DNA of 64,000 nucleotides from Pirellulales bacterium (GCA_044342075.1 JBIIQM010000002.1:6610-70609), one strand, 5' to 3'; positions 23,301 to 56,902 are shown, counted from the first letter of the stretch. The notes: generated from the sequence alone by a model not told the origin. Numbers and translations are program-made.

Positions 23301-23402
23301 GACGGCCTCACTGAATGGAAATGTCGGACCTGAGCCAAAGATCGTAACGGCCCGCCCCGCGCCGGGGCAATCGAAGCGGTCTTCAAGGGGAGGCGAGAAG
23401 GG

Positions 23403-23490
23403 GAGGCGAGCGGGTCGGCGAAAGCTCGCGGAGCATTTGGACCGAGTCTTCGAGGGCCACCGCGACGCGACTTTTGCCGCCCGCGAGCCG
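23403..23490. repeat. 88-nt structured intergenic repeat, copy B
   Basis: Same orientation as copy A. Lies 102 nt upstream of the TlpA-like start and 29 nt before the start of the 23520 gene. Closing stem GCGGGUCGGCGAAAG / CUUUUGCCGCCCGC. Confidence 0.8.
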
Positions 23491-24844: not shown

Positions 24845-27238
<2,394 letters not shown>

Positions 27239-31597: not shown

Positions 31598-31632
31598 GCA
31601 GGCCCTCCGGCTTTCGGAAAGGAATGGTTGCG

Positions 31633-39230: not shown

Positions 39231-39297
39231 GTAGGACAGGCTTCAGCCTGTCTCTTCTGCACAACGGGTCTACGCGACAGGCTGAAGCCTGTCCTAC
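39231..39297. repeat. REP doublet (REPIN-like), GTAG-headed family
   Basis: GTAGGACAGGCTTCAGCCTGTC (39231-39252), a 23-nt spacer, then the inverted unit GACAGGCTGAAGCCTGTCCTAC (39276-39297). Lies between convergent genes. Confidence 0.9.
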
Positions 39298-39647
39298 TGA
39301 GGAGGCGTCCGTATCCGTTCCTGCTCGAGCACGGGCATCGAGCGGATCGTGACGCCAGGCGCCGGCTGCTCCGCCGGCGGCATTCCCGACTGGGCGGGCA
39401 TACCGCGCCGCATCATCATCGCGCGATTCCGCGCCCGGATCCGGTCGCTGCGCAGCGGGATGCCCGGATAGGCCTCGATCGGCACCTCGAGGCTCGGCAG
39501 CCCGATCCGGCTGCCGTCGCCGAAGTAGGTAAACATCTCGATCGCACGCACTTCGCCAGGAATGGCAGCGAGCGAGATCGAAAGGAGCGAGAAGACCGCC
39601 GCCCGGCTGATGGTGCGATACACCACCGCCTGAAAACTCCGCCGCAT
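39294..39647 (-). CDS. small secreted protein, hypothetical
   Basis: ATG at 39647 (MRRSFQAVVYRTISRAAVFSLLSISLAAIPGEVRA...). The stop codon TAG lies inside the REP head. No family recognised. Confidence 0.4.
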   Translation of the reverse strand: MRRSFQAVVYRTISRAAVFSLLSISLAAIPGEVRAIEMFTYFGDGSRIGLPSLEVPIEAYPGIPLRSDRIRARNRAMMMRRGMPAQSGMPPAEQPAPGVTIRSMPVLEQERIRTPPQ

Positions 39648-39803
39648 GAAAAAATTCCGCTGGAGGTTCGTGCCGGCCACGGCATTCCTTCGTCCTCAAG
39701 CATCGGCAACCGGCCTGCGCGGGGTGACGATTTTCGGGCCAAACTGCCCGACCGGCACGACCGTCAAAGTCGGGGGCGGTCCACTCTGATGTAGGCTTGT
39801 TTC

Positions 39804-40694
39804 ATGCCGCTGCCCCTCGTCACCTGCATTGCCGCGATCGTTGCCGCAGGCTGTGCCGCCCTGGCTGCCTGGCGGGTGCGTGGCTCGACGGCCGTGCCTG
39901 CCGCATGGTGGGCGGTTGCCGCCTGCTTTGCGTTGGCTCTTGACGCGGGGAGCCGCGTGGGTGGCCCCACCGATCCCGCCGCGGCATCGCGGATGCGGCT
40001 CGTCGTGGCGGCGCTTGCCGTCTGCCCCGCGATGTCGCTCTTGGGCGCCAAGCGTCCGCAGCATGGCGTTTGGCAATTGATCGTGGCGTCGCTCGCCGTC
40101 GTGATCGCGATGCCCGCCCTCTCTGCCTGGCTCGTGCGGCCCGGCAGCCTGCCCGATGTCCACCTGCTCGGCCGGGGCTTCCTGGCCGTGCTCGCCGCCG
40201 TCGGCTGGATGAACTTTCTCGCCACGACGAACGGCATTTCAGCGACGGCGATCACTGCGGGCCAGCTGGCGGTGATCCGCCCCTTCCTTCCCGGCATCGC
40301 CACCGACCGGGCTCTGCCGCACGATTCGCTCGACTGTTTCGGGGCCTGCCTGATCGCCGCCGGAGCGGTGCTGGCGGCGGCGTGGCCGCTCGTGCGGCAA
40401 ACAAGCGCAGCGTCCGGCCGCAACGCCGCCGACGCCCTGAGCCGGTCGATCGACCCGCCGTTTCTCGCGCTCCGCGAGACGCTCGGCGCCGCCTGGGCGC
40501 TGCGGATCGCCGAACGCTTCGATTCGGTCGCCGCCGCCCGCGGCTGGCCCTGTCGTCTCGGGTTTCGCGGCGCCGAGGTCGGCGGCGACCCGGCTGATGA
40601 CTCGTGGCACCGCGACGCGCTGCGAGCCTTCAAGGCGCTCATGCATCGGTTCGTCGACGACGCCTGGCTCGCGCGGCACGGCTGGGGAGATTGA
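39804..40694 (+). CDS. polytopic membrane protein, hypothetical
   Basis: 296 aa. Six or more hydrophobic helices, then a soluble C-terminal ~90 aa. No family recognised. Confidence 0.45.
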   Translation: MPLPLVTCIAAIVAAGCAALAAWRVRGSTAVPAAWWAVAACFALALDAGSRVGGPTDPAAASRMRLVVAALAVCPAMSLLGAKRPQHGVWQLIVASLAVVIAMPALSAWLVRPGSLPDVHLLGRGFLAVLAAVGWMNFLATTNGISATAITAGQLAVIRPFLPGIATDRALPHDSLDCFGACLIAAGAVLAAAWPLVRQTSAASGRNAADALSRSIDPPFLALRETLGAAWALRIAERFDSVAAARGWPCRLGFRGAEVGGDPADDSWHRDALRAFKALMHRFVDDAWLARHGWGD

Positions 40695-40850
40695 GGGTCA
40701 TGCGGCTTGGAACGGCGTGTCGTTCGCGATCGCGCTAAGAATCTGCCGTGGGATGCATGCCCGCCAGTGGCCCCCGCGTCAGGAGGGCGGTAGACTTGCG
40801 GGCTGTTTCAGCGGAATTCTCTGAACCCTATTCCCTTTGAGGAGCCCCCC

Positions 40851-41183
40851 ATGGCCGATGAATCGAAGTCGCAGCGTGCCGCCGCCCCCGAACAGATGCA
40901 GGTGCCGGTCGATGAATCCCACATCGTCGCCCACTATGCCAACTTCTGCCGCGTGACCGGCACGCCCGAGGAGCTCATCGTCGACTTCGGCCTCAACAAG
41001 CAGGTCGCCGGCACGTCGCCCGAGACGATCCAGCTCACGCAGCGGATCATCGTGAACTTCTTCACCGCCAAGCGGCTCGCCTATGCCCTCGGCATGGCGG
41101 TGCAGCGTCATGAGCAGGCCTTCGGCATGCTCGAGACCGACGTGCAGAAGCGGGTTGTCCACCAGCAGCAGGCCAAGGCCTGA
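40851..41183 (+). CDS. DUF3467-like small protein
   Basis: 110 aa. GAGGAG RBS. YANFCRVTGTPEELIVDFGLN...IVNFFTAKRLAYAL resembles the DUF3467 core. Confidence 0.55.
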   Translation: MADESKSQRAAAPEQMQVPVDESHIVAHYANFCRVTGTPEELIVDFGLNKQVAGTSPETIQLTQRIIVNFFTAKRLAYALGMAVQRHEQAFGMLETDVQKRVVHQQQAKA

Positions 41184-41224
41184 TCCGGACGAGCCGGCCT
41201 CGCCCGGCCTGAAAACATCGCCCC

Positions 41225-43312
41225 ATGAGCACGGCCGACGAACAGGCGATCGAAGAGGCACGGCAGCAGATCCGTGCGCTCGTCGACGAGATCGAGACCC
41301 TCTCCCGCAACAATCTGGCGGAAGCGGATTTCTTTCGTGGCCTGCTCGATCGCGTGATCGAGGCGATGGGGGCCGTGGCGGGGCTCGTCTGGCTCATCGG
41401 CGAGCAGGGGCGGGTCGAGCCCGTCTGCCATGCGGGCATGCAGGGCACCGGCCTGACCGACGAGAAAGAATCGCAGGAGGCCCACGGCCGGCTCGTGCAG
41501 ACCCTGATCGGGAATCCGACGGGGCTGCTCGTGCCGCCGCGGGCCGGCCTCACCGGGCCCGACGGCAAGCCGGCCGCCGACAATCCGAGCGACCTGCTCG
41601 TCGTCTCTTCGCCGATCGATCGGGCGGGCAGTCGCGCCGGGCTGATCGAGGTCTTCCACCACCCGAATGCTCCCGACGTCGAGCGGGGCTATCTCAAGTT
41701 TCTCGAGCAGGTGTCGGCCGTGGCCGGCGGCTACCTCGAGCGACGGCAGCTCGTCACGCTCGACTCGCAGCAGGCGGCGCTCTCGCAGGTCGATCGGTTC
41801 AGCCGCGCGGTCCACGAATCGCTCGACCCCATCGCCACGGCATTCGTGCTGGCCAACGAGGCCCGGCGGATCATCGGCTGCGATCGGGTGAGCGTGCTCG
41901 TGAAGCGGCGGCGCAAACTCCGGCTCGAGGCGGTGAGCGGCCAGGAATCGATCGAGCGGCGGGCCACGGCCGTGCAGGCGATCGAGGCGATCGTCCGCGT
42001 GGTGGCGAAGGCAGGCGATCCACTCTGGCATCCGGATCCGGCGAAGGAACTCCCGCCGCAGATCGAGGAGGAGCTCGAGCACTACATCGACGAATCGCAT
42101 GCGACGGCGCTGGCGATCATCCCGCTTGAGAAGCCGCGGCCCACGCCGGTGGTAAAGCCGGGGGGCGTGGATGCGGTGGCCGTGGCGAAGGCGGAGGCGG
42201 CGCCGAAGCAGGTTCCCGAGCCGATCGGCGCGCTCGTCGCGGAATGGTTTTCGTCGAGCACGTTCGACGGGGGGAAGCGGGCCCGCGTGGAGCTCGTCGC
42301 GGAGCATGGCCGCGTGGCCCTTTCCAACGCGCTCGTCCACACGGGGCTGCCGTTCTACGGCGTCTTGAACCTGCTCGACAAATCGAAGGTGCTGACCACC
42401 GCCCGCAACCTGCCCCGCACCGTGCTCGCCGGTCTGGCGACGCTCGCCGGCATCCTCGCGCTGATTTTTATTCCGGCCGACCTGCGGCTCGAGGGGAAGG
42501 GCTCGCTCGAGCCGGTCCACCGCCGCGACGTCTTCGCGGAGATCCAGGGCGTGGTCGAGCGGCTCGAGCCCGGTCTCGAGCACGGCGCCGAGGTGAAGGA
42601 GGGGCAGCTCCTGGCCACGCTCCGCAACACCGATCTCGAGGTGGCGCTCACCGACGTGCTTGGCCGCAAGGCGTCGAGCGAGGAGCAGCTCGTGTCCACC
42701 CGCCGCGCCCTGCTCGAAGACAGCAAGATTTCGGCCGACGAAAAGACCCGCATGGCCGGCCGGGCCGCCCAGCTCCAGCGGGAGATCGAGAGCCTCGAGG
42801 AGCAGCGGAAGCTCTACGAGACGAAGAAGAAAGACCTCCTCGTGCGCAGCCCGATCGACGGCGTGATCGTGACCTGGCAGGTTCGCGATCGGCTGATCCT
42901 CAGGCCGGTGGAGCAGGGGCAGGTGCTCATGAGCGTGGCCGACAAGACCGGCCCTTGGGAGCTCGAGGTCCACATGCCCGACGACCGGCTCGGCCACATC
43001 AATCGCGCCGCGATGGCCGCGAAGCAGGCCGCCCGCGAGCTCGAGGTGGATTACATCCTGGCCACCGATCCCGGCACGCGGCACCGGGGCACCGTCAAGG
43101 AGATCCACGAGCAGGCCGAGGTTCGGGGCGAGCAAGGCAATACGGTGCTCGTGCGGGTCACGATCGATCCCAGCCGCCACGAGAAGGAAGAGCTTGGTGC
43201 GGGGGCGAGCGTCACGGCGCGGATCAACTGTGGCAAGCGTCCGCTCGGCTATGTCTGGTTTCACGACGTGCTTTCATTCATCCAATCGCAGATCCTCTTC
43301 CGGCTCTGGTGA
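41225..43312 (+). CDS. GAF-GAF-TM-HlyD membrane fusion (periplasmic adaptor) protein
   Basis: 695 aa. Two GAF-like regions (...AVAGLVWLIGEQGRVEP...AGLIEVFHH; ...FVLANEARRIIGCDRVSVLV...IGALVAEWF). One TM helix (VLAGLATLAGILALIFI). HlyD lipoyl/coiled-coil/barrel (VKEGQLLATLRN, long heptad stretch, LVRSPIDGVIVTW). Confidence 0.7.
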   Translation: MSTADEQAIEEARQQIRALVDEIETLSRNNLAEADFFRGLLDRVIEAMGAVAGLVWLIGEQGRVEPVCHAGMQGTGLTDEKESQEAHGRLVQTLIGNPTGLLVPPRAGLTGPDGKPAADNPSDLLVVSSPIDRAGSRAGLIEVFHHPNAPDVERGYLKFLEQVSAVAGGYLERRQLVTLDSQQAALSQVDRFSRAVHESLDPIATAFVLANEARRIIGCDRVSVLVKRRRKLRLEAVSGQESIERRATAVQAIEAIVRVVAKAGDPLWHPDPAKELPPQIEEELEHYIDESHATALAIIPLEKPRPTPVVKPGGVDAVAVAKAEAAPKQVPEPIGALVAEWFSSSTFDGGKRARVELVAEHGRVALSNALVHTGLPFYGVLNLLDKSKVLTTARNLPRTVLAGLATLAGILALIFIPADLRLEGKGSLEPVHRRDVFAEIQGVVERLEPGLEHGAEVKEGQLLATLRNTDLEVALTDVLGRKASSEEQLVSTRRALLEDSKISADEKTRMAGRAAQLQREIESLEEQRKLYETKKKDLLVRSPIDGVIVTWQVRDRLILRPVEQGQVLMSVADKTGPWELEVHMPDDRLGHINRAAMAAKQAARELEVDYILATDPGTRHRGTVKEIHEQAEVRGEQGNTVLVRVTIDPSRHEKEELGAGASVTARINCGKRPLGYVWFHDVLSFIQSQILFRLW

Positions 43313-43319
43313 GGCCCCC

Positions 43320-44231
43320 ATGCCCGTGCGACTCCTGCTTCTTGCTTCGATTGTGATCTCCTGTCAGCTCGCCGCCTTTGCCGAGGCTCCCGGCTCGTCG
43401 GAGCCGGTGCTCGAGCGGTGCCTCGTCTCGCTCGTGGAAGAGGCGAAGGTGCCGGCCCGCGAGCCGGGCGTGCTCGTGGAGCTCACCGTCCGCGAAGGGG
43501 CCACGGTCCGCCGCGGCGACGTGATCGCGAAGATCGACGACGACCAGCCACAGATGGAGAAGCGGAAGGCGAAGGCGGAGCACGACCAGGCGATCGCGAA
43601 GGCCGAGAGCGACGTCGACGTGCGGTATTCCATCACCGCCGAGCAGGTGGCGGAGGCCGAGCACAAAAAGGCTCTTGAGTCGCATGCGAAGGTGCCGGGG
43701 AGCGTGACGGAGGTCGAGCGGGCCCGGCTGATGCTCAACGAGCGAAAGAGCGAGCTGCAGATCGAACAGGCCGAGCTCGAGCGGCGGATGGCGACGCTCG
43801 CGGCCGCGTCGAAGGGAGTGGAGCTCGAAGCGGCCGAAAACGCGATCGAGCGGCGGCTGATCAAGAGCCCGCTCGACGGCGTGGTCGTGCAGATTTTCCC
43901 GCACCAGGGGGAGTGGATGCAGCCGGGCGACCCGCTGGCCCGCGTCGTCCGCGCCGACAAGCTCCGCGTGGAGGGCTACGTCGATTCGAGCCGGTTCGGT
44001 CCCGAGGAGGTTCGCGATCGGCCGGTGACGGTGGAGGTGAAGCTCGCCGACGACCGCAAGGAAACATTCGCGGGCCGGATCGTGTTCACGAGCCCGCTGG
44101 TGGAAAGCGGCGGTGATTACCGCGTGTTCGCCGAAGTGGAAAACCGCCAGGCCCCCGGTTCCGGCCAGTGGCTCCTGCGCGCCGGCCAGACCGCCCGCAT
44201 GACGATCCACTCCTCCCAACCACCGAAGTAG
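43320..44231 (+). CDS. HlyD-family periplasmic adaptor protein
   Basis: 303 aa. Signal peptide MPVRLLLLASIVISCQLAAFA, then VREGATVRRGDVIAKIDD, a coiled coil, and LIKSPLDGVVVQI. The TAG stop lies in the REP head. Confidence 0.75.
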   Translation: MPVRLLLLASIVISCQLAAFAEAPGSSEPVLERCLVSLVEEAKVPAREPGVLVELTVREGATVRRGDVIAKIDDDQPQMEKRKAKAEHDQAIAKAESDVDVRYSITAEQVAEAEHKKALESHAKVPGSVTEVERARLMLNERKSELQIEQAELERRMATLAAASKGVELEAAENAIERRLIKSPLDGVVVQIFPHQGEWMQPGDPLARVVRADKLRVEGYVDSSRFGPEEVRDRPVTVEVKLADDRKETFAGRIVFTSPLVESGGDYRVFAEVENRQAPGSGQWLLRAGQTARMTIHSSQPPK

Positions 44232-44280
44232 GACAGGCTTCAGCCTGTCGTTGTTCATGACAGGCTGAAGCCTGTCCTAC
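44228..44280. repeat. REP doublet (REPIN-like) inside the operon
   Basis: Units at 44228-44249 and 44259-44280 in inverted orientation, with the 9-nt spacer GTTGTTCAT. Confidence 0.9.
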
Positions 44281-44285
44281 TCCTC

Positions 44286-46520
44286 ATGTCCACCGCCGCC
44301 GACGCCTTTCGTTCGAGCACCACCAGGCCGGTGAGCCTCAAGCGGCGAGGCGATCTCGTCACGAACCGGCAGGTCTACCAGGGGCAGGCCTGGTGGGTGG
44401 TGAAAGACCCGATCTCACTCCACTACTTCCGGTTCCGCCCGGAGGAGTATTGGCTGCTCGACATGCTCGACGGCCAGAAGAGCCTGGAGGTGCTCAAGGA
44501 GCAGTTCGAGGCGAAGTTTCCGCCGCGGCGGATCACGGTGGAGGAGCTCTCGCGGTTCGTCGCCACGCTCCACCGCTCGGGGCTCGTGATCGGCGACCGC
44601 CCGGGGCAGGGTCCGCAGCTTTTCGAGCGGCGTCGGCAGCGGATCTGGAAGCAGTGGATGGCGTGGCTCGCGAACATCATGTCGATGCGGTTTCGCGGCA
44701 TCGATCCCGACCGGCTGCTCACGCGGCTCGATCCCTGGTTTGGCTGGCTCTTCTCGCCGCCGGCAATCGTCTGCATGCTGGCGTTCGTGGCGAGCGCCGT
44801 CCTGCTCGTGCTCGTGAATTTCGACACGTTCCGGTCGAAGCTGCCGGAGTTTCATCAGTTCTTCGCCGCGGGCAACTGGCTCTACCTGGCGATCGCGCTG
44901 GGCGTCACGAAGGTGCTGCATGAATTCGGCCACGGCCTTTCCTGCAAGCATTACGGCGGGGAATGCCACGAGATGGGCATGATGCTGCTCGTCTTCACCC
45001 CCTGCCTTTATTGCGACGTCTCCGACAGCTGGATGCTCCCCTCGAAGTGGAAGCGGGCGGCGATCGGAGCGGCGGGGATGTATGTGGAGGTGATCATCGC
45101 CTCGATCGCCACCTTCCTCTGGTGGAACTCGCATCCGGGCATCTTCAACCAGCTCTGCCTCGACGTGATGTTCGTCTCGAGTGTGTCGACGATCCTCTTC
45201 AATGCCAACCCGCTTTTGCGCTACGACGGCTACTACATCCTCTCCGACGTCCTCGAGATCCCGAACCTGCGGCAGAAGGCGACGACGATTCTCGGGCGGA
45301 TCGCGAGCCGCTGGTGCCTCGGCATCAAGCAGCCGGAGGACCCCTTCCTGCCGCAGCGGAATCGCGGCCTCTTCGCCCTCTACGCCGTGGCGTCGAGCCT
45401 CTACGGCTGGTTCGTGTCGCTCTCGATCTTTCTCTTCGTCTGGAGCGTCTTCAAGCCGTATCGGCTGGAGGTGCTGGGGCAGATCCTCGCGGGCGCGGCG
45501 CTCTGGGGCTTGGTGGTGAAGCCGATTCACGGGATGATCAAGTTTCTGAACGTGCCCGGGAGGCGCGACGAAGTGAAGACCAAAAACCTCGTGTTCACCG
45601 CGATCGTGGCGGCGGCCCTCGCCGGGGCGATCGCGCTCATTCCCCTGCCGCAGCGGGTCTGGTGCGCCGCCGAACTGCGGCCGCGCGGCGAGGAGACGGT
45701 CTATGTGACGGTGCCGGGGCGGCTCGAGAGCCTCGCCGTGAAGCCCGGCAGCCTCGTGAAGAAGGGGGACGAGATCGCCCGGCTGTCGAGTATCGACCTC
45801 GACCTCGAGATTGCGGATCTCGAGGGGAAGGCGTCACAATCGCGGTCGCGGCTCAACAGCCTCGAGCGGGAGCGGTTTACCGACCCGGCCGCCGGTCTCG
45901 AGATCGGCACGGTGGAGGAATCGCTCAAGAGCGTCGAGGAACAGCTCGACAAGAAGCGGAAAGACCGTCGCGATCTCGTGCTCGTGGCCCCGCGCGACGG
46001 CATCGTGCTGCCGGCGCCGGCGGTCGCGCCGCCGAAGGATGGCTCGGGACGGCTGCCCCCGTGGAGTGGCAACGCGCTCAAAGACAAGAACCTCGGAGCA
46101 ACCTTCCTCGAAGGCACGGTGCTCTGCATGGTGGGGGAGCCGGAGAAATTCGAGGCGGTGATGGTGGTGGACCAATCGGAGGTGGAGTTCATCGCGAAGG
46201 GGCAGCAGGTGGATCTCAAGCTCGATTCGTTCCCCTGGCAGACGTTCACGGGCACGGTCGCGGAAATCGCGGAGACCCACATCGAAAGCAGTTCCGAGCG
46301 GCTGAGCGTGAAGGCGGGCGGCCAGGTGCCGACGGAGACGACGGAGGAGGGCCGCGAGCAGCCGATCTCGACGAGCTATGAGGCGATGATGTCGCTCGAC
46401 GACACGGAGGCCGTGCTCACGCCGGGCATGCGTGGCACCGCGCGGATCAAGGTGGGCAGCCGCACCGTGGGCCAGTGGCTCCTCCGCCTCATCTGGCAAA
46501 CCTTCAACTTCCGCATGTAG
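44286..46520 (+). CDS. PqqD-like domain / M50 (site-2 protease family) metalloprotease / HlyD adaptor fusion protein
   Basis: 744 aa. N-terminal WWVVKDPISLHYFRFRPEEYWLLDMLDGQKSLEVLKEQF...LSRFVATLHRSGLV. Zinc motif LHEFGHGLSCKHYG. Second S2P motif NANPLLRYDGYYILSD within a polytopic region. C-terminal VKKGDEIARLSS, coiled coil, LVAPRDGIVL. Confidence 0.75.
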   Translation: MSTAADAFRSSTTRPVSLKRRGDLVTNRQVYQGQAWWVVKDPISLHYFRFRPEEYWLLDMLDGQKSLEVLKEQFEAKFPPRRITVEELSRFVATLHRSGLVIGDRPGQGPQLFERRRQRIWKQWMAWLANIMSMRFRGIDPDRLLTRLDPWFGWLFSPPAIVCMLAFVASAVLLVLVNFDTFRSKLPEFHQFFAAGNWLYLAIALGVTKVLHEFGHGLSCKHYGGECHEMGMMLLVFTPCLYCDVSDSWMLPSKWKRAAIGAAGMYVEVIIASIATFLWWNSHPGIFNQLCLDVMFVSSVSTILFNANPLLRYDGYYILSDVLEIPNLRQKATTILGRIASRWCLGIKQPEDPFLPQRNRGLFALYAVASSLYGWFVSLSIFLFVWSVFKPYRLEVLGQILAGAALWGLVVKPIHGMIKFLNVPGRRDEVKTKNLVFTAIVAAALAGAIALIPLPQRVWCAAELRPRGEETVYVTVPGRLESLAVKPGSLVKKGDEIARLSSIDLDLEIADLEGKASQSRSRLNSLERERFTDPAAGLEIGTVEESLKSVEEQLDKKRKDRRDLVLVAPRDGIVLPAPAVAPPKDGSGRLPPWSGNALKDKNLGATFLEGTVLCMVGEPEKFEAVMVVDQSEVEFIAKGQQVDLKLDSFPWQTFTGTVAEIAETHIESSSERLSVKAGGQVPTETTEEGREQPISTSYEAMMSLDDTEAVLTPGMRGTARIKVGSRTVGQWLLRLIWQTFNFRM

Positions 46521-46596
46521 GGTAGGCTTCAGCCTGCCAAAAAGTAGGACAGGCTTCAGCCTGTCGGTATTCATGACAGGCTGAAGCCTGTCCTAC
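46517..46596. repeat. REP cluster (3 units)
   Basis: Variant GTAGGGTAGGCTTCAGCCTGCC (46517-46538), a canonical unit (46544-46565), the spacer GGTATTCAT, and an inverted canonical unit (46575-46596). Confidence 0.9.
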
Positions 46597-46599
46597 CTC

Positions 46600-47460
46600 A
46601 TGCCCACGCTCGACCGCATCACGCTCTACCCCGTCAAAAGCCTCGACGGCGTCGAGGTGGCCGAGGCCCGCGTGATCCCCTCGGGCGCTCTCGAAAACGA
46701 CCGCCGCTGGCGGCTCGTGGATCTCGACGGCCGCGTCGTGAACGCCAAGCGCACGGCTGCGTTTCACTCGATCCGCGCTCAGTTCGACCTCGCAGAGAAA
46801 CTGATCTCGCTATCCCGCTGGGCCGATCCGCCATCGGCCGCGGCCGCCACGTTCCCGCTCGTGCCTGGACCGGAGGGACCGTGCGAGTGGCTCGCAGACG
46901 CCCTGGGCGTGAAGGTCCTGCTGGAAGAGCGGCATGACGGCGGCTTCCCTGACGACCGCGACGCGCCCGGCCCCACGCTCATCTCGACGGCGAGCCTCGA
47001 GGAAGTGGCCCGCTGGTTTGGTTTCGATCTCGCGGAGAGCCGCAGGCGGTTTCGGGCCAATCTCGAGATCGGCGGCTGCGATGCCTTTTGGGAAGACACG
47101 CTCGCAAGCCCCGCGCCAGCCCGTCTGCCACCGTTGCTCGGCGAATTGTCGCCAGACCTGCCAGGCGATCCCTACGCCGACCTGCCGCCGGCGGAGCCCC
47201 GGGAATTCTCGATCGGCGCGGCGAGGTTCCTGGCGACGAATGTCTGCAAGCGGTGCGTGGTGCCGAGCCGCGATAGCAAAACCGCGGCAGTGACGGCCCA
47301 CTTCCGCGACGCCTTCGAAGCCCGGCGGGGCAGGAGCCTGCGGGCCGACGTGGATGCCATCGGGTGGAACCACCTCCACCGGCTGGGCGTAAACACGCGC
47401 GCCGCCGGGGCGGGGGGGCGGATTGCCCTATCTGATGGGTTTTTCGAGTTACGACGGTAA
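46600..47460 (+). CDS. MOSC domain-containing protein
   Basis: 286 aa. ITLYPVKSLDGV (MOSC N-terminal beta-barrel), RFRANLEI, and CKRCVVPSRD (conserved Cys). Confidence 0.75.
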   Translation: MPTLDRITLYPVKSLDGVEVAEARVIPSGALENDRRWRLVDLDGRVVNAKRTAAFHSIRAQFDLAEKLISLSRWADPPSAAAATFPLVPGPEGPCEWLADALGVKVLLEERHDGGFPDDRDAPGPTLISTASLEEVARWFGFDLAESRRRFRANLEIGGCDAFWEDTLASPAPARLPPLLGELSPDLPGDPYADLPPAEPREFSIGAARFLATNVCKRCVVPSRDSKTAAVTAHFRDAFEARRGRSLRADVDAIGWNHLHRLGVNTRAAGAGGRIALSDGFFELRR

Positions 47461-47597
47461 CGCGGATTCGGCTCTGGGGTCCGGCTTGTTCAACTCCACT
47501 CGGGGGCCCGGCAGAAACCGCGTTGTTGTCCCTTGGCGTCCGCGGCGGTGATGCGGCTCGCGCCTCGGTCAGCGATGGCGTCGTCGCGGCAGTCTGA

Positions 47598-50096: not shown

Positions 50097-50248
50097 CGGA
50101 GTCGGATCCCTGGCGGTCGCCGGTTGGTCGAACGGGGCGATCCCCACGCGGAAAAACCGGCATGATCGTCAGGAGTGATCGACCCACCGCGACCGGATCC
50201 ATGAGAATTTCCGGCAGAGAGGCCGAGGGTTGCCCAGGTTAACAGGGA

Positions 50249-50357
50249 GTAGGACGGGCTTTAGCCTGTCGGAACATGGCAGGCTGGAAGCCTGCCCCAC
50301 CGGAGACAGGCTGAAGCCTGTCCTACTTGGGGAGACAGGCACGGAGGCCTGTCCTAC
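50249..50357. repeat. REP cluster (4 units)
   Basis: 50249-50270 GTAGGACGGGCTTTAGCCTGTC. 50278-50300 GGCAGGCTGGAAGCCTGCCCCAC (GTGG head on the other strand). 50305-50326 is canonical. 50334-50357 GACAGGCACGGAGGCCTGTCCTAC. Confidence 0.85.
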
Positions 50358-51958
50358 GAGACGCGGAAGCGGCTGATGGTGTCGGTGAGGCCGTCCACCG
50401 AGTGGCCCATGTGCTGTGAGGCGGCCTTGAATTCCTTCAGGGCCTCGGCGGCCGCGTGGGAGCCTTCTTTGAGCGTCATGAGGGCCTCGGTGATCTGGGC
50501 GGCTCCGGCAGCCTGGGCCTTCATCCCCTGATTCACGTGCTCGAACCGGCCCGTCAGGCCGTGCACCTTGTCGATCACGTCGGCGAATTGCGCACTGATC
50601 CCATTTACTCGCTCCACGCCCGTCTTCACCTCCGCCGCAAACCGGTCCATCTCCATCACGCCCGCATTCACCGCCTGCTGCATCTGCTCGACGAGCCGCT
50701 CGATGTCGAGCGTGGCCACGGCCGTCTGATCGGCGAGCCGGCGGATCTCCCGGGCCACCACGATGAAACCCTGCCCATATTCCCCCGCCTTCTCCGCCTC
50801 GATCGCGGCGTTGATCGAAAGCAGGTTCGTCTGGTCGGCCACCTTCGTGATCGTGGTGATCACCATGTTGATGTCTTCCGCCCGCTGCCGGATCGCCGCC
50901 AGCCGCTCCGAGAAATCGGTCGTCGTCTTTTCGAGATGGGCCATCGTCTCGCCGATCCCCACGAGATTCTCCCGGCCTGCGTCGGCCACGGTTGCCGTGT
51001 CGGCCGCCACGCCCGCCACCTCGTCCATCGTGCCGAGCAGTTCCTGGCCTGTCACGGCGATCTGACGGCTGGCCACCGCCGCCTCGCTCGTGCTCGCGCC
51101 GAGCGAACTGATCGCGTGCTCCTGCTGGCGGCCCGCGGCCGAGAGTTGCTTGGCCGTGGCATTCAGATCGAGGCTCGATTGCTTCACCTGCGAGACAATG
51201 GCCCGCAGGCTCGCCGTCATGCCGCCGATGTCGCGGAGCAACTGGCCCGTCTCGTCGCTGCCACGCATATCGATCGCGCCGGTGAGGTCGCCGGCGGCCA
51301 CGCGGCGCGAGGCGTCGACAGCCTTCGCGATCCGGCCGGTGAGCGTCGTTGTGAGCCACGCGAGCAGCGCCAGCACGCCCGCCATCCCGGTGGCGGCCAC
51401 GGCTCCACTCATGAGGAGCGGCCGGCGGACACGGCTCAAGACATCGTCGAGCTGCGCCTGCAAGACGACCGTCCACGAGCGGGCAGGCAGTTTCGCCGCG
51501 GCGTAGAGCAGGGGGGCGCCCGTCACCGGGTCGGCGGCCTGCACGATCCGGGCGGTCGTCACGGCCCGATTGAATTCATCGAGGACCTTTGCATAGGGCG
51601 TGTCGGCGATCAGTTTGCCGCTGAGGTCGGCCGTGGCCACCGTCGCAGCGATCAGCCGCCCTTCGCGGTCAATCACGAAGAGCTCCGGATGCCAGCCGGC
51701 CCGCTGCTGCTCGCGCTTGTCGGCCTGGAGCCGCGCCGCCACGGCGTCGGCCGCAGCCTGATCCGCCGCGGGGCCTTGGCAATCGAATTCGCCGGCGATC
51801 CGCCGCACCCGCTCCACGAGCACCTCCTCGCTAAAGGAGAGCAGCATCGACTGCATCCGGCTGTAGTTGAGCCAGAGCACCGTCGCAAAGATGAGGAGCG
51901 CCGGCAGGATGCCGAGCAGGAGCATCCGCAGCCGGATGCCGATGGCGGGGAACTGCAT
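50354..51958 (-). CDS. methyl-accepting chemotaxis protein
   Basis: 534 aa. Two TM helices flanking a periplasmic domain, a HAMP-like segment, and the signalling-domain core [39 protein letters not shown]. Confidence 0.85.
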
Positions 51959-52077
51959 GGTGGTGGGTCCGGGGAAAGGCCTGTTTTCCGAGGCAACCAT
52001 AGGTTACTTTCCGGGCCGGCCGCTTGCGGCTCGCCTGGGCCCCTCTTTCCCGAAAAACCCGCACAACCCGCCCCGCC

Positions 52078-52689
52078 ATGCCCCATCCCGCCGCTTGGCA
52101 GCTTCAAGACCACGACGCCCTGCTCTTCGACTGCGACGGCACGCTCGCCGACACCATGCCCGCCCACTACCGGGCCTGGCTCCATGTGACGGAGGCCCAC
52201 GGCATCGCCTTCGACGAAGACCGCTTCTATTCGATGGGGGGCCGGCCCACCCGCGACATCGTCGCGACGCTCGCCCGCGAGCGGGGCATCGAGATCGACG
52301 TCGATCACGCCGTCCATATGAAAGAGACCTCGTTCCTCGCCCAGCTCGACCGGATCGAGGCGATCGATCCGGTGGTGGACGTGGTGCTGCGGTCGCGCGG
52401 CCGCGTGCCGATGGCAGTGGTGACCGGGGGCTACCGGAATGTCTGCCTGCAGATTCTCGAGCGGGTGGGGATCGCCGACTGCTTCGACACGATCGTGGCC
52501 AGCGAAGACACGAGCAAACACAAGCCCGACCCCGATCCATTTCTCGAGGCCGCCCGCAGGCTGGGCGCCCGGCCGGAGCGGTGCGTGGTTTGGGAAGACA
52601 GCGACCTCGGCATTGCGGCCGCCCGCGCAGGCGGCATGGAGTGGATCGATGTGCGGTCGTTTCATAGGCCGAAGCGGGTGACGGGATGA
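52078..52689 (+). CDS. HAD-superfamily hydrolase (beta-phosphoglucomutase-like subfamily IA)
   Basis: 203 aa: LLFDCDGTLADT (motif I), AVVTGG (motif II), KHKPDPDPFL, WEDSDLGIAAARAAGM-like motif III/IV. Confidence 0.8.
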   Translation: MPHPAAWQLQDHDALLFDCDGTLADTMPAHYRAWLHVTEAHGIAFDEDRFYSMGGRPTRDIVATLARERGIEIDVDHAVHMKETSFLAQLDRIEAIDPVVDVVLRSRGRVPMAVVTGGYRNVCLQILERVGIADCFDTIVASEDTSKHKPDPDPFLEAARRLGARPERCVVWEDSDLGIAAARAGGMEWIDVRSFHRPKRVTG

Positions 52690-52692
52690 CGT

Positions 52693-52740
52693 GACAGGCT
52701 GAAGCCTGTTTGACTTTTGACAGGCTGAAGCCTGTCCTAC
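52693..52740. repeat. REP cluster (2 direct units)
   Basis: 52693-52714 GACAGGCTGAAGCCTGTTTGAC (degenerate head), TTTT, then a canonical unit at 52719-52740. It ends 2 nt before the ilvA-like start. Confidence 0.85.
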
Positions 52741-52742
52741 TT

Positions 52743-53960
52743 ATGCACACATTTGCGATCACAGACATTCGTGCGGCGCATGAGCGGATCCGCTCCGGGA
52801 TCTACCGGTCACCGTGCCCGAAGAGCATCGCGCTTTCCGACCTCACGGGCTCGGAGATCTTCTGCAAGCTCGACCTTTTGCAGCGGACCGGCTCGTTCAA
52901 GGAACGCGGTGCCCGCAACGCGCTTCTCCTCCTCGACGACGCGCAGAAAGCCCGTGGTGTGGTGGCTGCCTCCGCGGGCAATCACGCGCTTGGCCTGGCC
53001 TACCACGGCCGGCTGCTTGGCATCCCGGTGACCGTCGTGATGCCGCGGTTTGCGCCGCTGGTGAAGGTGGCGACCTGCCGACGGCTGGGCGCGACGGTGA
53101 TCCTCGAAGGGGAAACATTCGACGACGCTCGCCGGCTGGCCGTGGAGATCGCCGCCCGCGACCAGCTCAACCGCATCCACGGCTTTGACGACCTGCGGGT
53201 GATCGCGGGGCAGGGGACGATGGGCCTCGAGATCCTCGAAGATGTGCCCGATGCCGACGCGATCATCGTGCCCTGCGGCGGGGCCGGCCTGCTCGCCGGT
53301 GTGGCCACGGCCGCCAAGGCGTTGCGGCCCGATATCAAGATCATCGCCGTCGAGCCGGCGGCCGCCGCGAGCTTTTCGGCATCGCTCGCCGCGGGCAAGC
53401 CCGTGCAGGTGGCGATCCGCCCCACGCTCGCCGACGGCCTCGCCGTCGGGAAGGTGGGCGAGACGTCGTTTCCGATCGCGGCGCCGCTCGTCGATCGCGT
53501 GGTCACCGTCGGCGAGGACAGCCTGTCGCTCGCCGTGCTGCGGCTCTTGGAGCTTGAGAAGACGGTGGTCGAGGGAGCGGGCGCGGCGTCGCTTGCAGGC
53601 GTGATGCAGCTCGTCGCCGAGGGCTGCGACGACCTCCGTGGCCGGAAGGTGGTGCTCCTGCTCTGCGGCGGCAACATCGATCTCTCGATTCTCGACCGCG
53701 TGATCGACCACGGGCTCGCCGCCGACGGCCGCCGCTGGCGATTCACCACGCAGGTGAGCGACCGCCCCGGCGGCATCGCAAAACTCACGGCCGCGATCGC
53801 GGCGGCGGGCGCGAGCGTGCAGGAGATCGTGCACGACCGGGCTTTTTCCGGCCCGGACGTCTTTTCGACGAGCGTGCAGGTGACCGTCGAGACGGCCGAC
53901 CGCGACCATGTGGGGGCCCTTGCCCGTCGGCTCGAGGCCGATGGTTTTACCGTCAAGTAG
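52743..53960 (+). CDS. ilvA: threonine ammonia-lyase (threonine dehydratase), short form with one regulatory domain
   Basis: 405 aa: LQRTGSFKERGA (PLP lysine), ASAGNHALGLAY, PCGGAGLLAG, and a C-terminal ACT-like domain. Confidence 0.85.
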   Translation: MHTFAITDIRAAHERIRSGIYRSPCPKSIALSDLTGSEIFCKLDLLQRTGSFKERGARNALLLLDDAQKARGVVAASAGNHALGLAYHGRLLGIPVTVVMPRFAPLVKVATCRRLGATVILEGETFDDARRLAVEIAARDQLNRIHGFDDLRVIAGQGTMGLEILEDVPDADAIIVPCGGAGLLAGVATAAKALRPDIKIIAVEPAAAASFSASLAAGKPVQVAIRPTLADGLAVGKVGETSFPIAAPLVDRVVTVGEDSLSLAVLRLLELEKTVVEGAGAASLAGVMQLVAEGCDDLRGRKVVLLLCGGNIDLSILDRVIDHGLAADGRRWRFTTQVSDRPGGIAKLTAAIAAAGASVQEIVHDRAFSGPDVFSTSVQVTVETADRDHVGALARRLEADGFTVK

Positions 53961-54130
53961 GGTAGGCTTCAGCCTGCCACTCTTAGACCGCTTCCAAAGT
54001 AGACCGCTTCGTCCCGAAGCGGATCTGGTTCCGCTTGAGGATCAAGCGGACTACTCTGGCAGGCTGAAGTCTGTCCTACTTTGACAGGCTGAAGCCTGTC
54101 CTACGCCAGACAGGCTGAAGCCTGTCCTAC
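53957..54130. repeat. composite REP cluster (two GTAG-headed families)
   Basis: Variant unit at 53957-53978. Family-2 hairpins GTAGACCGCTTCG-TCC-CGAAGCGGATCT (53999-54026) and the inverted GTAGTCCGCTTGA-TCC-TCAAGCGGAAC (54029-54054, other strand). A degenerate unit at 54058-54079 and canonical units at 54083-54104 and 54109-54130. Confidence 0.85.
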
Positions 54131-54249
54131 TTTGCGGGCTGGGCAAGCTGCGCGGGCGGAGGGATTTCCGCTGTTTTTCTGCGTTAGTGGCTGCCGATAC
54201 CTCTCCGATGGTGCGTTCGGCCGGGACGCTCCAGCAGGAGACTTCTTTC

Positions 54250-54408
54250 ATGGTCACTCACTCGAGCAGCCTGTTGGTCGAGCCGGCCCGCCAGATCCCA
54301 TCCTCATCCGGGCCGAACCAGGAACGCGAGCAATTGCGCCGCGAACTCCTGCGTCGGATCATCGACAGGGAGACGAGGCGGCAAGCCCTTCGCGGCTCGC
54401 CGCAATGA
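54250..54408 (+). CDS. possible 52-aa protein, hypothetical
   Basis: ATG preceded by CAGGAGA-N8, the same spacing as the protease gene 30 nt downstream. Arg/Glu-rich helix QLRRELLRRIIDRETRRQAL. No family recognised. Confidence 0.3.
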   Translation: MVTHSSSLLVEPARQIPSSSGPNQEREQLRRELLRRIIDRETRRQALRGSPQ

Positions 54409-54438
54409 CTCCCGGAGCCACATCAGGAGATCACTCGT

Positions 54439-55521
54439 ATGCGAAACACATGCGGCACGATCATCCTGGCGGCCTCCCTCGCGATCGTCGGCGTGGCCCT
54501 CCGGCCCGCGGCTGCCCAGCAGCCGTTCTGGGGCTGGTCCACACAGCCGGCCGCGAGCACGAAATGGTCGCCTGAGCTCTTTGCCGACTACATCGGCACG
54601 GGGCAGACGCCGCACCCCGCGGTCGCGCGGATCGTCGCCCCCGAAAACTCGGGCACCTCGCTCGGCTCGGGTGTGCTCGTCGACGTGAATCGCAACCAGG
54701 GGCTCGTGCTCACCAACTGGCACGTGATCCGTGACAGCCGCTCCGCCGTGCTCGTGCAATTCCCCGATGGCTTTCAGTCGGCCGGTACCGTCGTCCGCTG
54801 GGACGAGCCGTGGGACCTGGCGGCGATCGTCATCTGGAAGCCGAACGCCACGCCCATCACGCTCGCCGACAAGCAGCCCGAACTCGGCGAGCCGCTCACG
54901 ATCGCCGGCTACGGCCGCGGGCCATTCCGCGCGGAGACGGGGCCTTGCACGCAATACCTCGCGCCGGGCTCCGGCTATCCGCTGGAATTCGTCGAGCTCT
55001 CGGCGACCGCCCGGCAGGGCGATTCCGGCGGGCCGATCCTCAACGCGCAGGGGCAGCTCGCCGGCGTGCTCTTCGGGCAGAACGACGGCCGCACGATCGG
55101 CAGCTGCTCCACGCGGCTGCGGACCTTTCTCGCGGGCGTGGGCTCCCGCGGCTTTCAGGGCATGCCGATCGCCGAATTCTCGCGCGAGCCGGCGCTGGCC
55201 CGCAGCCTCGGCACGCCGGCTGGGCAGGATCGCACCCGGCTGGCGTCGGTCACCGATGCCGAGGTGCCCGACGTCGTCCAGCGGTCGACCCACGTGGCCG
55301 CGCCGCTCTCGATGCCACCATCGCCGCCGTTTGGCCAGCAGTCCGGCTATCCACAAGAGTGGGAGGGCCCGGACAGCGAGCCGGCACTAGCCGACCTGCT
55401 CGACCCGCGGAGCAACCGCGATGCGATGCTTTCGGCCGGTGGCGGGCTCGCCATGGCGATCCTCGGGCTGCGGACGATTTTCGGCGGCCGCCGGCGGGAG
55501 TTGGGCGACGCAGCCGGCTGA
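54439..55521 (+). CDS. trypsin-like serine protease (S1C-like) with C-terminal membrane anchor
   Basis: 360 aa. Signal peptide, then GSGVLVD...VLTNWHV (His), WDLAAI (Asp) and RQGDSGGPIL (Ser). C-terminal GGGLAMAILGLRTIFGG. Confidence 0.7.
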   Translation: MRNTCGTIILAASLAIVGVALRPAAAQQPFWGWSTQPAASTKWSPELFADYIGTGQTPHPAVARIVAPENSGTSLGSGVLVDVNRNQGLVLTNWHVIRDSRSAVLVQFPDGFQSAGTVVRWDEPWDLAAIVIWKPNATPITLADKQPELGEPLTIAGYGRGPFRAETGPCTQYLAPGSGYPLEFVELSATARQGDSGGPILNAQGQLAGVLFGQNDGRTIGSCSTRLRTFLAGVGSRGFQGMPIAEFSREPALARSLGTPAGQDRTRLASVTDAEVPDVVQRSTHVAAPLSMPPSPPFGQQSGYPQEWEGPDSEPALADLLDPRSNRDAMLSAGGGLAMAILGLRTIFGGRRRELGDAAG

Positions 55522-55536
55522 TGTAAAACGCATGGC

Positions 55537-56784
55537 ATGACGCCGCAGCACTTCAGGATCGCCGCGCTCCTCCTGCTCGCCTGCTCGGCCACGGCCGCGG
55601 CGGAACAGATTCCCGAATGGCCCGGCTACCGTGGCCCGACCGGCGACGGCCATGCGGTCGCCGCGAACCTTCCGCTCGATCTCAACGCCCCAACGAACCT
55701 CGCCTGGAAGACGCCGATCCCGGGCGTCGGCTGGAGCACGCCCGTCGTCCTCGGCGAGCAGATCTGGATGACCACGGCCACGCCCGACGGCACGTCGCTT
55801 CGCGCCGTCTGCGTAAACCGCCGCTCAGGCGCGATCGAGCGCGACATCGAGGTCTTCCGCGTCGAGAAGCCGATAGAGATTCACAAGAAAAATTCCCACG
55901 CCTCGCCCACGCCGGTGATCGAAGCCGGCCGGCTCTACGTCCACTACGGCACCAACGGCACGGCGGCGATCGACACGTCGTCGGGCGGCGTCCTCTGGCG
56001 CGACACCACCCATCCGCTCGAGCACTACGTGGGACCCGGCAGCTCGCCCGTGCTCTACGGCGACCTGCTCATCCTCACCTGCGACGGCGCCGACGTGCAA
56101 TTCTCGGTGGCGCTCGACAAGCGCACGGGCAAGGAAGTCTGGAAGGCCGCGCGATCAGGGAAGCTCCGTGACGATCCGGACGTGCGCAAGAGTTTTTCGA
56201 CGCCCGCGATCCTCCGCGTGGGCGATCGTGACGAGCTTGTGACTCCCGCCGCGGATCACGTCTACGCCTACGATCCGGCCACCGGCCGCGAACTCTGGCA
56301 GCTCGACTACGAGGGCTTTTCGGTGGTGCCCAGGCCCGTCGCGGCCCACGGCCTCGTCTTTGTGTGCACGGGCTTCAACACGCCGCGGCTCCTCGCGATT
56401 CGGCAAGGAGGAGAGGGGCGGCTCGCCGCCGACGCGGTGGCCTGGGAGGAACGCAGCCAGATTCCGGCCAATCCCTCGCCGCTCATCGTGGGCGATGCGA
56501 TCTACGTGGTGAGCGACCGCGGCGTCGCCACCTGCCTCGACGCCCGCACCGGGAAGGAACGCTGGCGGCATCGCGTCGGCGGCAACTATTCCGCGTCGCC
56601 GCTCTATGCCGACGGCAAGATCTTCCTCGCGAGCGAGGAGGGAGTGATCACGGTCATCGAGCCGGCGGCCGCCTACCGCGAGGTGGCCAAGAGCGACCTC
56701 GCGGCGCGGATCATGGCATCGCCAATCGCGATCGGCGACGAGCTCATCATCCGCACCGCCGACGACCTGCGACTCTACAAGTAG
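55537..56784 (+). CDS. PQQ-like beta-propeller repeat protein
   Basis: 415 aa. Signal peptide, WPGYRGPTGDG, and repeated ...G..LW+ / ...TG+E.W+ blades (SSGGVLWRD, RTGKEVWKA, ATGRELWQL, RTGKERWRH). Confidence 0.75.
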   Translation: MTPQHFRIAALLLLACSATAAAEQIPEWPGYRGPTGDGHAVAANLPLDLNAPTNLAWKTPIPGVGWSTPVVLGEQIWMTTATPDGTSLRAVCVNRRSGAIERDIEVFRVEKPIEIHKKNSHASPTPVIEAGRLYVHYGTNGTAAIDTSSGGVLWRDTTHPLEHYVGPGSSPVLYGDLLILTCDGADVQFSVALDKRTGKEVWKAARSGKLRDDPDVRKSFSTPAILRVGDRDELVTPAADHVYAYDPATGRELWQLDYEGFSVVPRPVAAHGLVFVCTGFNTPRLLAIRQGGEGRLAADAVAWEERSQIPANPSPLIVGDAIYVVSDRGVATCLDARTGKERWRHRVGGNYSASPLYADGKIFLASEEGVITVIEPAAAYREVAKSDLAARIMASPIAIGDELIIRTADDLRLYK

Positions 56785-56902
56785 GGTAGGCTTCAGCCTG
56801 CCAACGCAGAAAGTAGGGTAGGCTTCAGCCTGCCAAATGCGGCCCCGATTCATTGGCAGGCCAAAGGCTACCTATGAAAAGGCAGCCTAAAGGCTACCCT
56901 AC
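56781..56902. repeat. REP cluster (2 variant + 2 degenerate units)
   Basis: GTAGGGTAGGCTTCAGCCTGCC at 56781-56802 and 56813-56834. Degenerate inverted units at 56855-56875 and 56881-56902. Lies between convergent genes. Confidence 0.85.

Follow-up and report, generated by a model that had tools for sequence, protein, structure and literature searches.

The closest described relatives of the repeats studied here are the GTAG-tagged repetitive extragenic palindromic (REP) sequences, a superfamily that, according to the paper describing it, includes members in Planctomycetes (Di Nocera, De Gregorio & Rocco 2013, BMC Genomics 14:522). Each of those elements is a short hairpin, one end of which carries an unpaired GTAG; they occur in high copy, mostly 3′ of open reading frames (ORFs), as singles, inverted pairs and clusters, and have G·T pairs in their stems. 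All of these features recur in the repeats that we describe from a 64,000-nucleotide stretch of DNA (hereafter the window; C125:6610-70609 of genome G000) of an uncultured freshwater planctomycete, Pirellulales bacterium. One sentence in the text of the 2013 paper mentions that GTAG REP termini often supply the TAG stop codon to flanking ORFs; in that text we found no frequency, frame test, orthologue comparison or mechanism for this, and we found no quantification or mechanism in the papers on the REP-associated tyrosine transposase (RAYT), the REPIN preprint or the RepRanger paper that we searched. The supply of TAG stops by GTAG REPs is already published, and what we report is a new, extreme instance of it: here about 12% of genes and 56% of REP clusters are involved, and the share of TAG stops rises with REP load. 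A search of the literature, which did not extend to searching with the hairpin sequences themselves, found no description of these hairpins.

Elements of the IS200/IS605 family insert 3′ of TTAC. The REP system shares with these insertion sequences (IS608, ISDra2) the Y1 transposase family, hairpin ends and single-strand chemistry, but in IS200/IS605 the target of four or five nucleotides is external to the element, with a distinct guide sequence at the foot of the hairpin, whereas the GTAG studied here would by analogy occupy the guide position rather than the target position, and empty sites often lack it. In the E. coli system of REPs and TnpA-REP (RAYT), GTAG likewise stands at the 5′ foot of the hairpin and a single-copy Y1 HUH transposase is flanked by REPs (Messing et al. 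2012, NAR 40:9964; Nunvar et al. 2010). Only for that system have binding, CT cleavage and strand transfer been shown; unlike it, G000 has a RAYT flanked by GTGG-headed units, and an A 5′ of GTAG with no conserved CT there. Inverted REP doublets are common to our repeats and the REPINs of Pseudomonas fluorescens (Bertels & Rainey 2011), but here long tandem arrays with unit-wise copy variation are as common as doublets, and mobility is deduced from sequence comparison.

We favour the reading, to which we give a probability of roughly two in three, that these repeats are a REP/REPIN population whose heads are copied with the units, overwrite native gene ends and persist there while the hairpins behind them turn over.

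REP heads coincide with stop codons throughout the genome

The assembly of the window's own genome, G000, comprises 3.28 Mb in 172 contigs (67.6% G+C, 93% complete); its congeners are labelled G001-G012. Genes were called with a codon log-odds caller trained on G000, which returned 2,618 genes at 90% coding density (g-numbers below are gene numbers from this caller), and REP units were catalogued with seven hairpin cores, allowing up to two mismatches and demanding no head. The catalogue holds 886 units in seven families and 458 clusters. Family A1 is the largest (GTAG-GACAGGCTTCAGCCTGTC, 458 units), followed by B (GTAG-GGTAGGCTTCAGCCTGCC, 148), A2 (85), C (GTAG-ACCGCTTCGTCCCGAAGCGGATC, 65), E (55), D (41) and F (GTAG-GACAGGCCTCCGTGCCTGTC, 34). 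The units fold into short palindromic stem-loops with a stem of 7-8 bp, in which G·T pairs occur, a loop of 3-7 nt and a folding energy of -12 to -15 kcal/mol. The head, which we define as the tetranucleotide directly 5′ of the stem, is GTAG in 84% of all 886 units (A1, 414/458; A2, 83/85; B, 134/148; C, 50/65; D, 36/41; F, 29/34) and GTGG in 55 of 55 units of family E. The pattern GTAGGRYAGGC..GCCTGYC occurs 592 times in G000 and 3-455 times in 12 congeners, with a single chance-like match in eight genomes of other genera of the order; the REP family is confined to the genus.

In 293 of the 886 units, we found, a called gene on the unit's own strand terminates at the TAG of the head; the others are intergenic (519) or overlap called genes (74). 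Genes that end in this way make up 12.1% of the total, roughly one gene in nine. When the distance from the head TAG to the nearest stop was plotted, offset 0 held the 293 units, +4 held 21 and +3 held 15, and beyond these there were about 5 per position. Among non-coding GTAGs, 40% of REP heads are stops compared with 20% of the others (Fisher odds ratio 2.8, p = 1e-24). An earlier note on this DNA had pointed out seven such gene ends in the window, and the excess over other intergenic GTAGs bears out its observation at the scale of the genome. At least one stop is given by 255 of the 458 clusters (56%), and two stops by 38. The count of 293 is a lower bound, because the REP variant of the window's cyclophilin gene is absent from the catalogue and uncatalogued hairpins follow about 35 further G-TAG stops. 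These data confirm that the coincidence of stops with REP heads is real and highly non-random.

At 68% G+C stop triplets are rare, and the pattern could in principle be an artefact in which ORFs simply run on to the AT-richer REP head, given that an ORF ends at its first in-frame stop and that REP heads are among the few TAGs outside genes. We regard the chance of this as negligible. Only one of the three frames is used: reading through a REP head in the other two frames occurs in only about 8-16 ORFs, which makes it some 30 times rarer. REP-stopped genes have a normal length and coding score, carry Pfam domains and have orthologues as frequently as other genes do, which argues that they are not spurious ORFs. 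Moreover, orthologues in relatives without a REP at that end stop at or near the same residue, an observation that already contradicts an artefact.

The coincidence depends on the head. GTGG-headed units are never flush with a stop: in family E the distance is 20 nt or more, and a fused GTAG unit usually stands in between; in G008, a congener in which GTAG-headed REPs are almost absent, the A-type units with a GTGG head are separated from stops by 5-18 nt. In that genome (loci L042-L081) the GACAGGCTTCAGCCTGTC hairpin is present in few copies, carries a GTGG head in 21 of 26 of them and supplies no stops, and G008 is a natural control for the role of the head. Gene starts beside REPs show no spike like that at stops (25 of 129 lie within 6 nt). 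These two results rule out pure compaction, in which REPs would merely be pressed against genes. Stops are also drawn from elsewhere in the units. The second TAG of family B (GTAGGGTAGG) serves as the stop of 8 genes, and inverted units give TGA to about 14 genes, drawing either on the loop (GGCTGAAGCC) or on a T together with the GAC of the tail; any REP triplet able to act as a stop is sometimes used as one.

The units are also strongly oriented. Of 514 gene ends that have a REP no more than 80 nt away, 432 are faced by its head and 82 by its tail. Adjacent units are arranged in tandem (211) or heads-out (210), and only rarely heads-in (7); heads-out pairs typically have a 9-nt spacer.

Orthologues point to replaced gene ends

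If insertions had replaced native gene ends, as the earlier note proposed as an alternative, REP-stopped proteins should differ at their C termini from orthologues in REP-poor relatives. The relatives were sampled in part, at 0.4-0.8 Mb each (about 820 kb for G010 and 800 kb for G008), and 72 REP-stopped genes have an orthologue in G008. The G008 protein is the longer one in 37 of these 72 (51%), compared with 93 of 438 controls (21%; p = 3e-7), with a median difference of 4 residues, and the two end at the same residue in 25 of 72 compared with 273 of 438 controls (p = 2e-5). The stop of these G008 orthologues is TGA in 64%. The last sense codon is AAG in 35% of REP-stopped genes but in 13% among other G-ending last codons, and this excess matches the 5′ flank of the REP itself. 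Both the shortening and the AAG excess support replacement of the gene ends. The ilvA-like gene of the window provides an example. Among about 50 relatives, proteins without a REP at this end have longer, variable tails and mostly end in TGA, whereas the REP-bearing clade has tails truncated at 0, +4 or +6 codons, in every case with AAG or CAG ahead of TAG and the REP.

For more recent events we turned to G010, the closest relative sampled (about 89% nucleotide identity). A REP-supplied stop is present in both genomes at 58 gene ends, of which only 10 of 38 classifiable pairs have the same hairpin class. An automated classifier found 49 clean sites, defined as a REP-supplied stop in one genome and no REP-like sequence in the other, and the stop is at the same codon in 28 of the 49. 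The REP-less versions of these gene ends, which we call empty alleles, end in TAG in 26 cases, TGA in 15 and TAA in 8, and in 41 of the 49 the stop is preceded by G. A stricter classification of the list by hand yielded more TAA and TGA, and the exact split thus varies with the treatment of decayed units. Few junctions with a clean empty site were found when G000 was compared with G010. Where their intergenic regions differ, it is mostly by having different elements and not by a simple insertion.

Comparison with three outgroups (G002, G012 and G011) at 30 polymorphic sites revealed three kinds of history. At some sites (g98, g264, g558, g1744) an ancestral REP stop has been lost or has decayed, with TAG becoming TAA or TGA at the same codon. 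Others are gains at the same codon, either from G-TGA or G-TAA (g384, g819, g26, g882) or from C-TAA or C-TGA, the last base having changed synonymously to G (g944, g1816, g2048). In the third kind, gains shortened or rewrote the C terminus (g405, g817, g1045, g320). The earlier note had equated an unchanged stop position with use of a target and a changed C terminus with remodelling of the gene; among the orthologues, recent events mostly kept the stop position, and the comparison with G008 more often yielded shorter proteins. From these alignments it appears that the stop position is usually kept in recent events while the stop codon is rewritten, and that a short tail tends to be lost over longer spans. 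A pre-existing GTAG, as far as the aligned empty alleles indicate, is common but not required.

The abundance of G before the stop in empty alleles (41/49, against a baseline of 34%) raises the possibility that joining is directed by sequence. The head would pair or recombine preferentially with G-T-R-R (G plus any stop codon) during integration by the RAYT, or slippage or deletion would run from the stop to a REP a few bases downstream, and in either case TAG would land on the old stop. Several observations fit: the stop position is the same in most recent events; an 11-nt difference at g1397 brings the T of TGA up against the AG of a head; g817 reads TGA-GTAG in one genome and TAG in the other; and the secondary offset peaks at +3 (15 units) and +4 (21 units) lie close to the stop. 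However, a G precedes the stop in 50% of genes that have an unfused head 0-12 nt downstream, which is no depletion, G008 has G before about 50% of its TAG and TAA stops despite having almost no GTAG-headed REPs, and the truncating events require another route. We therefore consider directed joining possible but doubtful. Its simplest form, a GT-microhomology ratchet, is not supported, the predicted depletion of G-preceded stops near unfused REPs being absent.

Evidence for GTAG as part of the REP unit

The earlier note had favoured the idea that GTAG is a pre-existing insertion target rather than part of the element. Several lines of evidence say otherwise. First, the bases 5′ of GTAG are themselves conserved: position -1 is A in 63-74% of units, fused and unfused alike, position -2 is A in 38-63% depending on the family, CCG precedes GTGG in 76-89% of family E units, and conservation at positions -1 to -3 is family-specific. 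Second, each unit of a tandem array has its own GTAG. Third, the indels that distinguish strains include the head. Contigs from other lake metagenome samples (L243-L258) encode cyclophilin or ilvA-like proteins identical to those of the window, and we take them to be near-identical strains on that ground; a search for strain contigs of the chemoreceptor gene and the 128-aa ORF of the window found no exact record. Compared with the window, these strains have gained or lost whole 26-nt units consisting of head, hairpin and spacer: the array at 54058-54130 has 2, 3 or 4 units and that at 56855-56902 has 1 or 2, two strains having only one there. In some strains B-type units replace the A-type units of the window. 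At the end of the PQQ gene, one strain has the sequence 'aag TAG cg GTAG CACAGGC...', a new unit with its own head after the old stop, and at g264 G000 has two extra tandem units, each with GTAG, in place of the 'TGAtctcccag' of G010. In the structure of the E. coli RAYT-REP complex, GTAG is bound base-specifically as a guide-like 5′ part of the REP, and cleavage takes place at CT elsewhere (PMC3479197). Taken together, these comparisons suggest that GTAG is part of the REP unit and not a target that was there before.

A target model would have the hairpin alone mobile, inserting 3′ of a genomic GTAG, with G+TAG stops as the main tolerated targets and excision leaving GTAG behind. It does account for some of the data. 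G-TAG is found in 26 of the 49 empty alleles of the G010 comparison (15 of the 28 same-codon sites), compared with about 14% of non-REP stops genome-wide; G008 has GTAG at the same codon in 8 of 72 orthologues compared with 20 of 438 controls (p = 0.04); and at shared REP-stop sites GTAG is retained, with hairpins of different classes in 28 of 38 classifiable pairs. We nevertheless find it distinctly unlikely. A target of the IS200/IS605 kind should pre-exist at the empty site, but empty alleles carry TGA or TAA in 23 of 49 cases, the gains polarized by outgroups arose from G-TGA, G-TAA and even C-TAA or C-TGA, and 64 of the 72 G008 orthologues lack G-TAG at that codon. Such a target should also lie outside the copied DNA, whereas here each tandem unit has its own GTAG and the 26-nt strain indels take the head with them, which already points to GTAG-bearing inserts. 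The shortening of 51% of REP-stopped proteins relative to G008, the family-specific bases at -1 to -3 and the guide-like role of GTAG in the E. coli RAYT, with its cleavage at CT, also speak against the model. Thus the part of the earlier interpretation that made GTAG a target is disfavoured, and its alternative, replacement of the gene ends, is supported.

Among the strains, the stop junctions do not change, and the arrays behind them vary in 26-nt steps. This invariance could reflect positive selection, whereby a hairpin at the stop codon is kept since it protects the 3′ end of the mRNA or tunes termination or translation, and the fusions would be regulatory. Consistent with such a role, a hairpin of -12 kcal/mol begins at the base after TAG; family B, about half of whose units are fused, pairs fully only on the mRNA strand of the upstream gene; and heads face gene ends by 432 to 82. 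In E. coli, REPs less than 16 nt from a stop lower translation, according to the RepRanger paper, which cites this work (PMC12306157), although there the hairpin comes after the stop, whereas here the REP contains the stop and the spacing is zero. On the other hand, GTGG-headed units show no preference for closeness to stops, and the strand asymmetry of family B would equally suit recognition of single-stranded DNA by a RAYT. Selection on the hairpin seems to us rather unlikely.

Stop-codon usage follows REP density

The share of TAG among stop codons climbs with the density of GTAG-headed REPs over four congeners, nearly doubling from 19% to 35%. G008, with 9 GTAG-REP units per Mb and a REP-head stop in 0.2% of genes, uses 75% TGA, 19% TAG and 6% TAA. 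The corresponding figures are 38 units per Mb, 3.4% of genes and 60% TGA, 27.5% TAG and 12% TAA in G002; 196 units per Mb, 10.6% of genes and 54% TGA, 32% TAG and 14% TAA in G010; and 241 units per Mb, 12.1% of genes and 53% TGA, 35% TAG and 13% TAA in G000. These are four related genomes and not independent points. When REP-supplied stops are removed, TAG still accounts for 24-26% in the three REP-bearing genomes compared with 19% in G008, and TAA is doubled. The residual excess of TAG and TAA is compatible with relics of decayed heads, a reading that is weakened by G008 too having G before about half of its TAG and TAA stops.

REP units of the window

At least 25 short hairpin units lie between 39.2 and 56.9 kb of the window, with GTAG (rarely GTGG, ATAG or GTCA) directly 5′ of a stem of 7-8 bp. 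At all seven gene ends singled out by the earlier note, and at the positions given there, the stop is indeed the TAG of a GTAG head with a REP hairpin directly 3′; both of the note's exceptions, which end in TGA, are as it described them. Searches against Pfam confirmed the identities of the products (HlyD_3; Peptidase_M50 fused to HlyD; PALP plus ACT; HAMP/MCPsignal; PQQ; and Pro_isomerase, the cyclophilin).

The first exception is at the left edge of this region, where the head of an A1 unit (39231-39252, + strand) begins 1 nt past the TGA stop (39227-39229) of a TPR protein, reading TGA, T, GTAG, and is not used as a stop. This unit forms a heads-out pair with an A1 unit on the - strand (39276-39297), whose head TAG (39294-39296) is the stop of a 128-aa ORF (39294-39680) with no Pfam match. 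Further on, the HlyD_3 adaptor gene (43320-44231) ends in the head TAG (44229-44231) of a + strand A1 unit at 44228-44249. The inverted partner of this unit in a REPIN-like pair (A1, 44259-44280, - strand) has a head that ends 5 nt ahead of the ATG at 44286, where the Peptidase_M50/HlyD fusion gene (44286-46520) begins. The fusion gene in turn stops at the head TAG (46518-46520) of a family B unit (46517-46538, + strand), behind which a heads-out A1 pair (46544-46596; 46544-46565 on the + strand and 46575-46596 on the - strand) ends 3 nt ahead of the ATG at 46600. The sequences 44226-44280 and 46542-46596 are 96% identical over 55 nt, and inverted heads-out pairs appear to be copied as one unit, like REPINs.

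A cluster at 50249-50326 consists of an A2-like unit on the + strand (50249-50270) and, on the - strand, a GTGG-headed E unit (50278-50300) and an A1 unit (50305-50326). Next to it, a family F unit (50334-50357, - strand) supplies the head TAG (50354-50356) that ends the gene of the HAMP/MCPsignal protein (50354-52000). The second exception is the HAD hydrolase gene, whose TGA (52687-52689) is followed by 'cg' and then an inverted REP; here two inverted A1 units (52693-52740, - strand), the first with a head decayed to GTCA, lie tail-first behind the gene and end 2 nt before the ATG at 52743. REP clusters thus end 2-5 nt ahead of the next ATG at three places (44280/44286, 46596/46600 and 52740/52743), leaving no room for a Shine-Dalgarno sequence at those starts. 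The ATG at 52743, and not position 52710, is the start of the ilvA-like PALP/ACT gene (52743-53960, 405 aa). Its stop is the head TAG (53958-53960) of a family B unit (53957-53978, + strand).

Behind the ilvA-like gene lie a heads-out pair of a second GTAG hairpin type (53999-54054), with a family C unit on the + strand and GTAGTCCGCTTGATCCTCAAGCGGAAC on the - strand, and the tandem array of three A1-type units (54058-54130, - strand; period 25-26 nt) that varies among strains. The PQQ propeller gene (55537-56784) takes its stop (56782-56784) from the head of the first of two tandem B units (56781-56834, + strand), and the convergent cyclophilin gene (56899-57435) takes its own (56899-56901) from the outer head of two tandem B-variant units on the - strand (56855-56902), namely GTAGGGTAGCCTTTAGGCTGCC and one ATAG-headed unit. 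Beside the cyclophilin start, a protein kinase is called as 387 aa or 355 aa depending on the strain (L243/L244), and the spacer to the cyclophilin gene is accordingly 35 or 131 nt.

Transposases and other repeats

G000 encodes one RAYT proper (C94:~30297-30958), which has an HUH motif (HLHWI) and the tyrosine motif YVENNPVKAG, is single-copy and has family E (GTGG) units on its flanks. It was missed by a search with the Pfam Y1_Tnp model and found by tblastn with the G010 protein, to which it is 40% identical. The G010 RAYT (175 aa, C81:10757-11281) is flanked by GTAG-headed family A units, and homologues with 41-72% identity are present in 10 of 14 congeners. Relatives of one window protein are freshwater-lake metagenome-assembled genomes labelled Pirellulales, Planctomycetia or Planctomycetaceae.

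Three G000 genes that do match Pfam Y1_Tnp were ruled out as RAYTs, their flanks being unrelated terminal inverted repeats (AAAAGGTGTCAGGACTC..., AAAAGGGGACGCAGCTC... and GGGGACGGGAGCGGAT); we liken them to the TIR-associated tyrosine transposases (TIRYTs) of Di Nocera et al. because of these flanks. One of them, a 224-aa gene about 6 kb upstream of the window (C125:237-911), is flanked by a 35-nt inverted repeat, GTGATCAAAAAGGTGTCAGGACTCTTTTCCGGACA, which is also found in the window at 5468-5563 and belongs to a family of about 77 copies. The inverted repeats that flank the other two (on C101 and C33) start with GGGGAC.

Other repeats were also noted. A 91-nt direct repeat occurs in the window at 9212-9302 and 23400-23490 (88% identical); there are 13 genomic copies of its core, GGCCCGAGTCCGCGAGG, which congeners carry downstream of gene ends as well. 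Many gene ends in G000 outside the window and in G010, G002 and G011 (for example, L024 and L183-L242) are followed by an element some 100 nt long that begins ...CAACTCGCCCAACCCGGCTCGGGGCTGC...; its core occurs 43 times in G000 and is conserved across congeners, and REPs often sit between the stop and this element. Finally, a repeat of about 130-160 nt (...AGCCCCCGGCGGGAGCCGGTGGGGTGACGC...; G000 C105:~26521-26678 and ~31498-31628) is found at intergenic sites that hold REP pairs in G010, and it likewise begins right after the stop codon.

Discussion

We propose that GTAG is the 5′ foot of each unit and would be copied along with the hairpin and one to three upstream bases, serving, by analogy with E. 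coli, as the tetranucleotide read by the RAYT. Clusters would be built with their heads outward, and an outer GTAG would therefore face each neighbouring gene. As units are gained, lost and swapped at gene ends, an intrusion into an ORF would be harmless only if it puts its TAG in frame, either on the native stop or a few codons ahead of it. What such junctions overwrite would be the last base and the native stop (TGA, TAA or TAG), or else a short C-terminal tail that the protein can spare, and once fused they may last while the hairpin behind them turns over. That the RAYT moves the units is suggested by the E. coli system, and we infer that selection against read-through or non-stop products clears the other frames; a hairpin of -12 kcal/mol directly behind the stop codon may also have effects of its own.

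Several points weigh against this reading of a copied head that overwrites gene ends. About half of the empty alleles already carry G-TAG, as a target model predicts. No RAYT flanked by GTAG-headed REPs was found in the 93%-complete G000 assembly. The polarity of gains and losses comes from three outgroups at 30 sites only, and the gene calls are our own. Random insertion and tolerance would yield a few tens of units at offset 0, given about 5 per downstream position, and not 293. Targeting, fusion bias or positive selection must therefore add to tolerance. It is possible that the excess at offset zero arises from sequence-directed joining, from persistence of the junctions or from selection on the hairpin, perhaps acting together.

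A stronger form of targeting would be that REPs home to stop codons, the RAYT-REP machinery preferring G-T-R-R and rewriting TGA or TAA to TAG at the same codon, and decay or loss of the hairpin leaving G-TAG or G-TAA behind. Although we hold this to be unlikely, its consequences would be considerable: a mobile element family, and not mutation bias or release-factor selection, would set stop-codon usage in a bacterial genus, and a hairpin would have been placed at the termination site of about 12% of genes.

Apart from homing, these results describe gene ends rewritten by a non-coding mobile element without loss of the genes, and a shift in stop usage that co-varies with REPs, from 75% TGA and 19% TAG to 53% TGA and 35% TAG among four congeners. 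Annotators of this lineage can take a TAG stop to be REP-borne when GACAGGC..., GGTAGGC... or ACCGCTT... comes next; the final residue, in many cases Lys, may also stem from the REP. The genus also offers contrasts, namely GTAG and GTGG heads on the same hairpin and REP-rich and REP-poor species, with which the placement of REPs and their effects on termination could be studied.

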